Shown: positions 38,912 to 64,000 of the stretch, piece after piece
Numbering within the stretch: the first letter of the stretch is position 1
Layout: each line of letters opens with the position of its first letter
From: an uncultured bacterium
Lineage (GTDB): Bacteria; Babelota; Babeliae; Babelales; JABCYS01
Direction of reading: 5' to 3'
NCBI GenBank assembly: GCA_963705705.1
Contig: CAVPKK010000007.1
Span: 268,221-332,220 of the forward strand
DNA length: 64,000 nucleotides
The notes under the pieces: generated by a model
Databases searched by the model: none
Told to the model about the DNA's origin: nothing
Seen by the model: only the letters and a program-made list of their open reading frames with translations
Translations under genes and position numbers: made by a program

Positions 38912-40105
38912 TTAAAGTTGCTGAATTTTATCAAGAAAAAATGACACTTCATCTGCAGTATTATACATGCCAAAACTAGCCCGAACCGCGGCATCCAAGC
39001 CTAACTGCTTGGCCAATGGCTGAGCACAGTTATGCCCTGCACGAACGCAAATATTGAATTGGTCCAGATAGGCAGCAACATCATGAGCATGCATGCCATC
39101 TACAATGAAACTTACTAAGCTTCCGCGCTTTTTTAATTCTTCGATGGGCCCCAGCAATTTAATTTTTGGCAACTTCTGCAGGCCCTCAATAGTTTGCTTA
39201 CACAACGTAGATTCATACTTCTCAATCGCGGGGCGATCCAATTGCATGAGGAAATCAATCGTAGCTCCCAGGCCAATAGCTTCAGTAATCGCTGGGGTAC
39301 CAGCCTCAAACTTTCGTGGTGCTGGTTGCCAGGTAGCATGATGGTAGTCAGTGGTAAAGACCATGCCGCCGCCATATTGATATGGTGCAACAGCATCATG
39401 AAGTTCTTCTTTAATAAACAATATGCCAATGCCGCTGGGCCCATACATTTTGTGGCCTGAAAAAGCTAAGAAGTCACAATTCAAATCCCTCACATCGATA
39501 GCTTGGTGAACCACAGACTGTGCGGCATCAACCAAAATTTTTGCACCGGCAGCATGAGCCATGTGTGCAATTTTTTTCACATCTATCTGTGTACCCAAAA
39601 CATTAGAAGTATGAGCAATCGCAACTAGCTTTACGCCTTTACCAATGCATTCTTCTGCATGTGCCATATCGAGCATGCCGTCCGTTAACAAGCGAATAAC
39701 CCTGAGTTCAGCCCCAATTTCATTACAAACCACTTGCCATGGCAAAAGATTACTGTGATGTTCCAAGGCCGAAATCACAACCACATCGCCTTTTTTTATA
39801 TGCTTTGTCGCCCAGGCTTGCGCAATAAAATTAATAGATTCGGTAGTGCCACGAGTAAATACAATTTCCTTGCTTTGGGCATTTAAAAATCTTGCCACTT
39901 TTGCACGCGCTTCATCAAACTTTTCCGTTGCATGTTCGGCCAGTTTATAAATTCCGCGATGCACATTGGCGTAGCCATGCAAATAAAATTGCTGCATAGC
40001 ATCAAGGACTTGTTGAGGTTTTTGTGCCGATGCAGCGGTATCGAAATAAATCAAGTCTGGATTGTGCTCAAACAATGGGAAGTGAGATCGGATATTAGTT
40101 TTCAT
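38912..40105 (-). CDS. sufS: Cysteine desulfurase SufS
   Basis: YFDTAASAQKP, ANVHRG, EHHSNLLPWQ, FSGHKMYGP, RAGHNCAQP. Confidence 0.96.
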   Translation of the reverse strand: MKTNIRSHFPLFEHNPDLIYFDTAASAQKPQQVLDAMQQFYLHGYANVHRGIYKLAEHATEKFDEARAKVARFLNAQSKEIVFTRGTTESINFIAQAWATKHIKKGDVVVISALEHHSNLLPWQVVCNEIGAELRVIRLLTDGMLDMAHAEECIGKGVKLVAIAHTSNVLGTQIDVKKIAHMAHAAGAKILVDAAQSVVHQAIDVRDLNCDFLAFSGHKMYGPSGIGILFIKEELHDAVAPYQYGGGMVFTTDYHHATWQPAPRKFEAGTPAITEAIGLGATIDFLMQLDRPAIEKYESTLCKQTIEGLQKLPKIKLLGPIEELKKRGSLVSFIVDGMHAHDVAAYLDQFNICVRAGHNCAQPLAKQLGLDAAVRASFGMYNTADEVSFFLDKIQQL

Positions 40106-61965: not shown

Positions 61966-64000
61966 TTATTTTACTAATCTCTTTTCTACTTCTCTGCGTA
62001 TTGCTCTTCCCAGTTCACTTTGTGCAATTTCTTCATCTACCACCTGCCGGCGGCGTTTTGGGAGAAAAGCACCTACTTCCTTCAGATAACTGTTAAATGA
62101 GCTTATAGCATCATCAAATTTTCCATCTTCAAGATAATCCATGCCCGATGCAAAAAGTGGCTCATTGTTCAGTAATGTGTCTGCGCCTTTTCGTTCATGA
62201 GCAAGCTCTGCGGCATGAGCAGAAGATTCTTTTGAGAACTGTTCAAGTGCAAGCGTAGCTTTTTCAGGATTGGTTACCAAAAGCTGGCGAGCTTCTTGAT
62301 ATTTCTCACGAAGCTTTCCAACTACATCCTCTTGGGGAATCGGTGAGATCCAGCCAGGGGAAGGCGGCGTTATTCGTCGTCCGACTTGAAAGCTAGCCAA
62401 TCGTTTTTCTACTTCAGCCAAGCTAGCCTCGGCTTGTTTTTTAATTTGAGGAAAATCAATGGCTTGCGGAATCATATCTGCAAATAGTTCACGTGCCTTG
62501 GCCAAGTCGTTCATCTTGAATGCGGCTTTGCCCGAAAGCAATAGCGATTTGAGATATTCTTGGTCAGCCGGATAGCCACGCAGCTGCCAACGATAAAGTT
62601 CTAACAATGGTTCGGCCTTTGCTGCATCCGCTACACTGGCAGTCTTTTTCAAAAGATCCTCAGCATCTGAAAGTAATTTATCCGTTGGCCAAACGTCGAT
62701 ATCGATTAAATCTACATTACGAGTTCTTTGGGCTTGCTCATCTTCAGTTTCATAAATTTCACCTCGAGCATCAATCATGACCACAGCAATAGCATCTTTT
62801 TCGCGAAGCATTTTATACACGATGCGGTAGTTGCCAATGCGAATGCGCCAAAGCCCTTCGAGGCCTTTACCTTTAAGTTCCACCGCTGAACTATTTTTAT
62901 AGCCAAAACTCAGTTCTTCAAGCGCTTCTCTCGCTCGCGATTTTATCTCTTTTGGCAATGGCTCAAGCTGGTTATATGGATCAAATATGAAAAGCAATTG
63001 TTGCGATTCTTGCTCTGCTGATGGCGATACCACTTTCTTTTCTGGAACTACGGCCGATTCTTTTTCAACAGCTCGCAATTGCTGATTGGCCTTATTCACA
63101 AATTCTCTTCGTTCTGGGATTTTGAGATCTGCCAATGCCTTGATAACATCTCTTACATTATCAGCTCGTGCGCTTGATGGCTTTTCTTTGTACTTTGCCA
63201 GCGCTCCTTCAAATTCAATCTGAAGGGTATCGGCCTTTTGTTGCTTATATTGATTTTGTAAAGTTGCAATTTGTTTGCGAATATCCGCATCGGTAATAGT
63301 TAATTGCTGAATATCGTGCAACTTTTGTTTTGCAACATCCAGCTCTTTATTTTCCAATGCCTCATCGAGCCCTTTTATCAAGTTACGTGCTTGGCGAGTT
63401 TGCTGCTCTTGGTGTGCCTTTTTTTCTTCTTCTGTTAGCTCAGCGGCAGCCGCTGAAGGTTTACTCCATTTCGCTACTTTTGCTTTTAGAAGTTGTATTT
63501 CCGTCGCAAGCTCAGGCATGTGCAATGTTTCAAGCTCTGCTATCGCTTTCTTTGCAGCTTTTATCAATGGTGGTGTCGGAGCTTTTCCTAGGAGTTCAAA
63601 TATCTTAACTGTTTGTATTCCAATAAACACATCTCTGAACTGATCAATCTTTTCCCTAAGAAATGACACTTTTTTCTCAAGTGCAGCTTCATCGTACACG
63701 TTTTTGAGTTCGATCGAGGCTTGTTCAAGCAGTTTCTCGGCATCAAGAAAATCCTGAGCTTTCGCAATCGGTTGTGAAAGTAATTCTTCCAAAGTGCGCA
63801 TGGTCGACATTGCTTTTGCCATTAATTCCTGTCGCTCATTTGCTTGTGCTTCGAACGAAATACCTTTTTTTCAGCAGACAACGCTACAAGATTTTGCTGA
63901 GCTTCTTTTGCTGTCTCAAGGTCATCCTTTTGATTTGCAGCTTTTTCAAAATATTCTCGCGCTTTTGCAACGTCTTTTTTCAAACCGTACATACCTTTAT
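61966..64000 (-). pseudogene. Sel1 + RelE-domain gene (copy 7), 5' end off window, 1-nt deletion in A7 tract
   Basis: 63872-64000 encodes the last Sel1 repeat homologous to copy 6, in a different frame from ORF 61966-63822; adding one A at 63865-63871 restores the frame. Confidence 0.75.

Follow-up and report, generated by a model that had tools for sequence, protein, structure and literature searches.

RelE is a model toxin of bacterial toxin–antitoxin systems and cuts mRNA on eukaryotic ribosomes in vitro, an activity described for the E. coli protein (PMC2807027, PMC11980606), in which R61, R81 and Y87 are the key residues (PMC2807027). The 64,000-nucleotide stretch analysed here, called the window throughout (positions 268,221 to 332,220 of contig CAVPKK010000007.1, from an uncultured, small bacterium of the protist-parasite type in the Babelota), holds a minus-strand, head-to-tail array of seven large paralogous open reading frames (ORFs), c1 to c7, at 40102-63822 in the ORF list, an extent that an earlier first-pass annotation had given correctly. 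Only sufB and a short sufD-like gene break the array, sufS comes next after c1, and each of the seven ORFs contains an internal domain of the RelE type. The best overall explanation, to which we assign a probability of about 0.75, is that this is a recombining array for ankyrin/Sel1-RelE proteins in which the exchanges are old and whose products would be exported and act on a host. The term "effector", which the first-pass annotation applied to these proteins, is used here for a role that we infer from sequence.

The domain resembles the RelE/StbE toxins, such as E. coli RelE, archaeal aRelE (PHS013, 1wmi) and M. jannaschii RelE3 (3bpq), in that it aligns with them over its whole length of ~88 aa and keeps the same invariant Arg and Tyr residues. 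It differs from them in being embedded in proteins of 1000-1260 aa with a signal-like N-terminus and repeats, in having no antitoxin gene, and in that the window copies stay under the NCBIfam RelE_StbE cut-off, their activity being predicted only. In a review of multidomain RelE/ParE toxins (PMC11980606), the words "ankyrin", "Sel1", "signal peptide" and "secreted" do not occur in the main text, nor do "ankyrin" or "Sel1" in its three supplements, one of them covered in part.

The polymorphic and endosymbiont toxins surveyed by Zhang et al. (2012, PMC3482391) share with the window genes the succession of a Sec signal, which is putative in the window, repeats and a toxin domain, as well as variety generated by recombination, and the survey proposes an action on the host for ankyrin, Sel1 and TPR carriers of intracellular bacteria. 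In the same survey the Tox-RelE entries belong to other phyla and are listed with RHS repeats, a HINT peptidase and Imm54 immunity; "TM6" is absent from the part of its text used here (PMC3482391). In polymorphic toxins the C-terminal toxin is swapped for other types (PMC3482391), whereas in the window the RelE domain is internal and constant, 7/7 copies having the same toxin type; what the array reassorts are alleles of the same modules and the type of the N-terminal repeat.

The phylum setting is shared with the signal-peptide-bearing ankyrin proteins of Dependentiae (Chromulinavorax destructans, Babela; PMC6561590, PMC4776705), for which a role in host manipulation is presumed. In Chromulinavorax, 78% of 98 ankyrin proteins have signal peptides (PMC6561590), and Sec and type II secretion components belong to the same setting, the type II components being general in the phylum (PMC4776705). 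The word "toxin" is absent from the main text of both papers, so that no nuclease or toxin domain is reported there in those proteins; long fused RelE homologues occur in 4/261 genomes of the order, with a multi-copy array only in the window genome. An RNase of the toxin–antitoxin type from an obligate intracellular bacterium, Rickettsia VapC2, reaches the host cytoplasm and degrades host RNA (PMC12321070). VapC2 is a free VapC from a VapBC pair, unlike the present RelE-fold domain, which has no antitoxin and sits in a multidomain protein predicted to be exported.

As for recombination, the S. aureus lpl cluster (Tsuru and Kobayashi 2008, PMC2568036) is likewise made of tandem co-oriented paralogues with conserved recombination sites inside the ORFs and incongruent 5′ and 3′ phylogenies, and it has a conserved unit extending over the 3′ part of one ORF, the spacer and the 5′ part of the next, comparable to the c6 tail and c5 head in the window. 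Incongruent phylogenies for different parts of the same ORFs, the mark of an lpl-type cluster, are found in the window as well. The lpl genes belong to another family and phylum; the window genes differ in having several breakpoints each and at least one internal conversion patch, and their strain comparison uses one foreign protein, P0006. The antigenic-variation systems Anaplasma msp2/p44, Borrelia vlsE and Neisseria pilE/pilS have mosaic genes formed from paralogous segments by non-reciprocal recombination, with one expression site, silent partial cassettes and recent, near-identical tracts. The window copies are unlike these in being complete (6/7), in standing in one operon-like array, and in the age of their tracts (synonymous divergence, dS, at least 0.12). 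The parts, i.e. RelE toxins, Tox-RelE polymorphic toxins, ankyrin/Sel1 carriers and recombining tandem clusters, are known. A literature search returned no protein whose RelE domain is internal and preceded by an export signal and ankyrin or Sel1 repeats, with neither antitoxin nor immunity gene, in an expanded, recombining array within the suf operon; papers on RelE with ankyrin repeat, effector and toxin–antitoxin, judged by title and start of abstract, contained no such fusion, and a search for Dependentiae with RelE gave only one unrelated preprint.

Mosaic structure of the paralogues

The first-pass annotation had proposed that the paralogues exchange segments by recombination, which is borne out by the homoplasy test, the segmentation, the conflicting trees, the topology tests and the third codon positions. 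A codon alignment of the common C-terminal part of the seven copies (2106 columns, 1788 ungapped, 664 informative sites) gives a pairwise homoplasy index (PHI) of z = -34.4, and of z = -16.8 on third codon positions, with 0/2000 permutations as low in each case. A GARD-like dynamic programme (54-nt grid, 703 FastTree likelihoods) divides the alignment best into 8 parts by the corrected Akaike information criterion (AICc; gain 1513) and into 5 by the Bayesian information criterion (BIC; gain 961), whereas three codon-shuffled controls gave dAICc of 28.5, 0 and 0 and dBIC of 0, 0 and 0. Codon shuffles also erase rate variation along the gene, and topology was therefore tested separately.

By ultrafast bootstrap, the linker (coiled-coil) segment unites (c6,c7) at 100 and (c4,c5) at 98, the RelE segment (c2,c3,c7) at 100, (c1,c6) at 97 and (c4,c5) at 100, and the tail segment (last 72 columns) (c5,c6) and (c1,c2) at 100 each. 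In approximately unbiased (AU) tests the trees of 7/7 other segments are rejected both for the RelE segment (p 1.4e-3 to 2.9e-48) and for the tail segment (p <= 3.2e-11), values that are to be read as optimistic. Third positions alone recover (c2,c3,c7) at 98, (c1,c6) at 90, (c5,c6) at 100 and (c1,c2) at 95, and the AU rejections persist on them (RelE p <= 0.021, tail p <= 2.2e-4); that the same conflicts appear at third positions points to exchange of DNA and rules out convergence at the protein level. The module phylogenies and recombination tests that had been suggested as a check are thus available, and the trees are incongruent. Judged from these comparisons, a recombination mosaic among the paralogues is nearly certain.

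The allele patterns reported by the first-pass annotation are all found again in a MAFFT protein alignment of the seven ORFs. The RelE loop reads GHKDPxAxKLSYGE in c1, c4, c5 and c6 and GYKNSSAVELKGKGLE in c2, c3 and c7; the RelE end is ERLPKKDAVAI..RKEVY in c1 and c6, LREK..RGEIY in c2, c3 and c7, and ..RRDIY in c4 and c5; the post-RelE helix is WPTDKLLSDAE..KKTASV in c1, c6 and c7, IDKLLEDAK..KGEDVS in c2 and c3, and YPPEKLL..KNNID in c4 and c5; the tail has QALEEGEYDDAITFF in c5 and c6 and a second 16-residue form in c1, c2, c3, c4 and c7; and LDKIEESKLG is confined to c1 and c2. Loop and end together make only three haplotypes among the copies, so that this pair alone does not require recombination. 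Although the shared patterns are real, they are not near-identical DNA: dS between nearest tracts is 0.12-0.70, which makes the exchanges old. The idea that recombination creates combinations stands in so far as the seven copies and P0006 all differ in theirs, but not as ongoing hypervariation.

Gene conversion, which had also been proposed, accounts for one of the traces. Windows of 60 nt place the conversion-like patch of c7 (Table 1) between c6/c1-like sequence on one side and c6-like sequence (87-98%) on the other, and the stretch, which covers most of the RelE domain, is on this reading of the alignment a product of conversion. A different explanation is better for the tail shared by c5 and c6. 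Copy c5 is sister to c4 everywhere but in its last ~70 codons, which are c6-like, and identity between the unit of c6 tail, spacer and c5 head and that of c5 tail, spacer and c4 head is 83-93%, with no break at the junction; this offset unit marks a tandem duplication by unequal crossing-over with its boundary ~200 nt before the stop codon, from which the c5/c6 tail clade would follow more simply than from conversion. At all junctions the tail end, AGGAG spacer and signal-peptide DNA are conserved (about 80-95%), and c4, c5 and c6 have 79/90 bases of signal-peptide DNA in common despite Sel1 repeats in c6 versus ankyrin in c4 and c5. In the family tree of linker and RelE domain, the seven copies and P0006 form one 100/100 clade nested among ankyrin-bearing relatives, which indicates that the repeat domain itself was replaced in the window lineage.

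P0006, a 930-aa protein from another assembly and the only close relative among 5.8 billion clustered proteins, is 75% identical to c7 overall and is itself mosaic: in 30-aa windows it is c7-like at alignment columns 91-240, c1-like at 241-285, c2/3-like at 286-450 and c6-like at 556-680. A separate tandem pair, P0008/P0009, on a 7.7-kb contig of another organism, follows the same gradient, with 25-30% identity in the ankyrin part and 50-65% around RelE, but a tail block (residues 952-1010) identical at 37/40 positions, which suggests local homogenisation in another lineage too.

In the mechanism proposed, the mosaics seen in the C-terminal ~620 codons would stem from homologous recombination of the RecA type, acting on copies that were misaligned or paired (the genome has recA and ruvB), with crossovers in conserved stretches, namely the junction of tail end, spacer and signal peptide, the RelE start and the NNEP motif. 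Short-patch gene conversion would have brought ~0.2 kb of RelE into c7 from a c2/c3-like donor, unequal crossing-over would have duplicated a unit offset from the gene borders (c6 tail and c5 head resembling c5 tail and c4 head), and the family would have expanded in the window lineage from one gene upstream of sufB. The array is a clean and statistically strong example of tandem effector-like gene diversification in a reduced genome, by patch conversion and duplication of an offset unit.

In the RelE segment dN/dS is 0.02-0.1, and the modules have been kept under purifying selection. Within each allele class the 16-codon loop has a pN/pS of 0.05, and between the classes one of 0.78, as against 0.16-0.19 in the flanks, and 11/12 fixed loop differences lie at codon positions 1-2. 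The check on loop selection suggested by the first-pass annotation thus bears out a divergence between classes about five times the flank rate, but with a pN/pS that is not above 1: the two loop forms are each maintained, but positive selection is not demonstrated. The loop alleles did not arise by a compensated frameshift, since the codon alignment shows in-frame substitutions and a two-codon indel.

These data bear on a stronger form of the first-pass proposal, the view that the array is a diversity-generating arsenal, in which module reassortment is selected and new combinations give new host or substrate specificities. It would fit the differing module combinations of 7/7 copies and P0006, loop alleles that are each conserved yet strongly different, N-terminal domains far more diverged (34-44% aa) than the rest, and the ankyrin-to-Sel1 swap inside a 100/100-supported clade. 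However, the exchanges are old and few, about five events being sufficient, the array has neither silent cassettes nor donor tracts that are nearly identical, pN/pS never rises above 1, and patchy conversion and offset duplication are expected as neutral by-products of any tandem array (PMC2568036), so that selected reassortment is considered unlikely.

The RelE-type domain and its carriers

The Pfam family ParE_toxin (PF05016, curated cut-off 23 bits) matches 7/7 copies at E <= 3e-4, with 5/7 at or above the cut-off. A profile of the seven copies alone, searched against 1.84 billion protein representatives, retrieved 612 proteins at E <= 1e-3, and the 150 matches listed of these comprise 5 clusters that are the window itself, P0006, 15 others of 179-1069 aa, 128 that are mostly toxin-sized and one that is TPR-like. 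Among the matches listed, the 128 are mostly of 64-144 aa (one of 235 aa) and match only profile positions ~275-372; with such stand-alone toxins the RelE domain aligns end to end at 26-36% identity. The longer relatives among the matches listed carry ankyrin (3) or Sel1/TPR (9) repeats before the same linker and RelE unit, and the ten longer relatives examined by cluster are all singletons, one of them named RelE/StbE.

Against solved structures, a family-only profile finds archaeal RelE (1wmi, 8e-5), RelE3 (3bpq), 2khe and E. coli RelE (0.0095), and no gyrase-poison ParE is among these matches. The motifs R-x-R, Y-R and R-x-x-x-Y are invariant in 36/36 aligned sequences, and R328, R333, R353 and Y357 in 45/45; in the alignment the conserved residues fall on R58, R60, R65, R85 and Y89 of 1wmi. 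A provisional residue-by-residue map places them on K52/K54, R61, R81 and Y87 of E. coli RelE. From these matches, homology of the domain to RelE is highly probable.

The proteins consist of a repeat domain, which by Pfam is ankyrin in c1-c5 and Sel1 in c6 and is represented in c7 by an upstream Sel1-like frame, a K/E/Q-rich helical linker of ~270 aa, the internal RelE domain of ~88 aa, and a further 260-330 aa made up of an acidic helix and a TPR-like tail. The ankyrin match is strong in c1 (Ank_2, 5.6e-70), which has an extra, c3-like terminal ankyrin block, and c4 retains a longer TPR insert that is also found in P0008/P0009. A start codon with a signal-like N-terminus is present in 6/7 copies, which are complete genes; in c3 the signal-like segment begins at internal Met 13.

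No cognate antitoxin gene adjoins the copies, the spacers of 12-15 nt or gene overlaps between them leaving no place for a small ORF, and no immunity gene lies directly downstream, where the next gene is a paralogue, sufB or sufS. The family is rare and, from the sequences at hand, so far one of Dependentiae-type genomes; P0012, named by NCBI from "Candidatus Dependentiae bacterium", is encoded exactly in G061, one of the four genomes of the order with a long fused homologue. A family-alignment search of genome and metagenome contigs gave no related loci, an ESM Atlas search with c7 reached a best score of 0.77 with no usable lead, and a PADLOC scan returned ankyrin-type matches only. In another genome (G055), a 189-aa ORF with Sel1-like repeats (L105:3033-3602) lies directly upstream of a P0020-like family member of 526 aa, and its C-terminus has a cysteine/histidine pattern that by eye resembles a RING-type zinc finger.

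As to function, export would proceed by Sec and perhaps by a type II-like route, and three secretins and one ATPase of the T2SS type are present in the genome; a target in the eukaryotic host would be bound by the repeat domain, and RelE would cut ribosome-bound mRNA there. The activity of E. coli RelE on eukaryotic ribosomes and the access of a Rickettsia VapC to host RNA make such host action plausible. That no antitoxin accompanies the genes would fit a protein that folds only after export, or alternatively the tail may mask the RelE domain. An exported, host-directed nuclease is a tentative proposal, its chances on sequence grounds falling slightly short of even. If it were true, evolution would have turned a RelE fold on a eukaryotic host by fusing it, with no antitoxin, to an export signal and to binding repeats of the eukaryote type, which would offer a candidate function for the large unexplained set of exported ankyrin proteins in Dependentiae; natural variants (two alleles of the loop, three of the helix and two tails) are at hand. 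A more far-reaching version is doubtful: that these are the first natural RelE-fold, ribosome-dependent nucleases in secreted anti-eukaryote effectors, exported by a Sec/type II-like route and docked by ankyrin or Sel1 repeats to act on cytosolic or mitochondrial host ribosomes, with loop, helix and tail tuning the choice of ribosomes or codons, in a recombining arsenal against varied protist hosts.

The proteins might instead not be host-directed nucleases, the RelE fold serving as a non-catalytic binding module in the periplasm or at the surface, or as a self-directed addiction toxin that stabilises the suf operon. The internal position of RelE, which the following 260-330 aa could mask, would agree with this, as would the translational coupling of the array to essential suf genes, scores under the curated RelE_StbE cut-off and a c7 ORF with no signal peptide. 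However, the catalytic Arg/Tyr pattern is invariant at the low dN/dS given above, signal-like starts recur in the complete copies and in relatives (by a crude, non-discriminating score), spacers of 12-15 nt fit no antitoxin gene, and ankyrin and Sel1 domains are characteristic of the phylum's host-interacting proteins (PMC6561590, PMC4776705), which together make this alternative improbable. A classical polymorphic toxin system directed against competing bacteria is very unlikely: Tox-RelE does exist in Sec-dependent polymorphic toxins (PMC3482391), and the window genes are also multidomain, recombining and predicted to be exported, but their toxin domain is not C-terminal and is constant in type across copies, no immunity gene follows, the repeats are ankyrin and Sel1, not RHS or FilH, and the lineage is of a reduced parasite type with a 1.38-Mb genome.

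Assembly, the start of c7 and points on the other side

The longest exact tract common to any pair of copies is 17-56 nt, except for 122 nt between c4 and c5, and tracts of up to 56 nt are too short to mislead an assembler; c4 and c5, sisters nearly throughout, may be an exception. From soil metagenomes (4 runs, 3 studies), 68 low-depth contigs of 150-330 nt could be placed on the window; 36/68 are >= 99% alike to it, and no joints were found. Two of them, X6 record 29 (62622-62875, 0 differences) and X2 record 14, span the change in c7 from a c2/3-like RelE domain to a c1/6-like helix. The comparison of strain arrangement covers P0006, as a protein, and contig loose ends at 63573, which in two runs continue P0006-like. 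At 63119-63355 run X2 contains one contig that is exact and another with 23/237 differing bases, from which a second allele or a further paralogue coexists in the sample.

The first-pass annotation took c7 for a Sel1 copy. The 618-aa ORF is devoid of both a Sel1 repeat and a signal peptide of its own, and a Sel1-like part lies upstream in another frame, separated from it at an A-run (Table 1); this break may be a homopolymer sequencing error, a pseudogene or slippage, and no continuation of the Sel1 part was found on any other contig end of the genome. In the upstream frame the run reads A AAA AAG, the form of the classical slippery heptamer.

That the mosaic is an artefact of assembly or binning, with paralogues or strains joined into chimeras in a metagenome-assembled genome, one of the conditions under which the first-pass annotation would have been overturned, is most improbable and already largely refuted: although the array stands at a contig end of a 9-contig draft, c7 has its homopolymer break and run X2 holds a second, ~90% alike allele (X2 record 15), the exact repeats between copies are short, short contigs of other runs cross the c7 junction with 0 differences, P0006 of another assembly is a mosaic of the same modules, and nearest tracts are 2-20% apart, not identical, so that a mis-join would not create them.

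It has to be noted that a number of points weigh against the recombining array of exported ankyrin/Sel1-RelE proteins as proposed here. Two copies, c1 (21.9 bits) and c6 (22.3 bits), score just under the ParE_toxin cut-off, and the cut-off of NCBIfam TIGR02385 RelE_StbE (27.9 bits) is missed, with c7 at 21.5 and no match for c4 and c6 (E <= 0.01); it is passed only by the domain of a sister species, G001 (L010, 33.6 bits). The signal peptides were judged by eye, and the crude hydropathy score (>= 2.4) reached by 6/6 complete copies and by 12/15 other family proteins (P0006, P0008-P0017, P0019-P0022) is also reached by 51% of the genome's ORFs of >= 200 aa, so that it does not discriminate and is no evidence for export. 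An active RelE domain in c7, which as annotated has no signal peptide, would be awkward. Since the same seven sequences supplied both the breakpoints and the trees, the AU p-values are optimistic, a weakness of which PHI and the shuffles are free. Some of the metagenome runs may be the genome's own source sample, and P0006, available as a protein sequence only, may be an unassembled eighth paralogue instead of an allele.

Gene neighbourhood

Seven is a minimum for the number of paralogues in the array: the window stops exactly where the contig does, in a 1.38-Mb, 9-contig draft genome, and the array is thus cut there. A genome-wide search with c7 returns only the seven copies. The positions of all features are collected in Table 1.

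Table 1. Features of the ankyrin/Sel1-RelE array and adjoining suf genes, in window coordinates
Feature	Position	Strand	Description
c1	40102..43881	-	1259 aa; stop overlaps sufS start (ATGA)
c2	43871..47239	-	1122 aa, ankyrin; ParE_toxin 25.3 bits
c3	47253..50261	-	1002 aa, ankyrin; first gene after short sufD-like gene; ParE_toxin 27.1 bits
c4	52309..55341	-	1010 aa, ankyrin; directly upstream of sufB, 1-nt overlap; ParE_toxin 26.6 bits
c5	55357..58380	-	1007 aa, ankyrin; ParE_toxin 26.5 bits
c6	58393..61953	-	1186 aa, Sel1 repeats (Sel1 5.5e-61); ParE_toxin 22.3 bits
c7	61966..63822	-	618-aa ORF with helical linker, RelE domain and tail only; ParE_toxin 26.2 bits
RelE-type domain of c1	40870..41127	-	loop GHKDP; end RLPKK..RKEVY
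RelE-type domain of c2	44675..44938	-	loop GYKNSS; end MLREK..RGEIY
RelE-type domain of c3	48033..48296	-	loop GYKNSS; end ILREK..RGEIY
RelE-type domain of c4	53260..53511	-	loop GHKDP; end MLREK..RRDIY
RelE-type domain of c5	56302..56553	-	loop GHKDP; end MLREK..RRDIY
RelE-type domain of c6	59170..59427	-	loop GHKDP; end RLPKK..RKEVY
RelE-type domain of c7	62743..63006	-	loop GYKNSS; end MLREK..RGEIY
Conversion-like patch in c7	62739..62949	-	~0.2 kb, 86-96% to c2/c3; limits +/-30 nt; 60-nt windows
Last ~200 nt of c6	58393..58590	-	with spacer and c5 head, a unit 83-93% identical to c5 tail, spacer and c4 head
Sel1-like upstream part of c7	63823..64000	-	other frame; aligns with c6 from YHEGLYGLKK onward; cut by contig end
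A-run GAAAAAAAGG	63863..63872	-	one base shorter in c7 than in c6; frame break between Sel1 part and 618-aa ORF
AGGAG-bearing spacers	58381-58392, 61954-61965, 55342-55356, 47240-47252	-	12-15 nt each
sufB	50969..52309	-	Pfam SUFBD_core 3.9e-80
Short sufD-like gene	50343..50846	-	167 aa; C-terminal half of SUFBD core
sufS (cysteine desulfurase)	38912..40105	-	Pfam Aminotran_5 1.6e-140; start overlaps c1 stop

The sister species G001 has just one ankyrin-RelE gene, upstream of sufB in the position of c4, and the short sufD-like gene (sufD') is directly followed by sufS, an arrangement from which two changes are specific to the window lineage: the array has expanded upstream of sufB, and c3-c2-c1 have been inserted after sufD' and before sufS. 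The three copies c3-c2-c1 are thereby placed between two genes of the essential suf operon that are adjacent in the sister species (L010, L099). Short sufD forms are usual in the order, relatives (G001-G012) having open frames of 140-281 aa just downstream of sufB with no sufC between. A search of genome contigs with sufB gave 80 loci of many phyla at 59-70% identity and was uninformative on taxonomy. A promoter and terminator scan of 44001-64000 stayed below shuffled sequence (26 vs 39 and 14 vs 22.8) and is uninformative on operon structure. At one junction, the stop codon that serves the others has been lost from c2, which is extended by 12 residues and overlaps the start of c1 by 11 nt (43871-43881).

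Further large minus-strand ORFs lie at 1719-15143, with Sel1 repeats in those of 372, 1087 and 842 aa, and several others there of 430-891 aa are without Pfam match; together with the array, this looks like a wider block of effector-like genes. Within the Sel1 region of c6, a 117-nt tandem repeat of ~2 copies (61218-61625, 75-77% matches) indicates that repeat units were duplicated within the gene.

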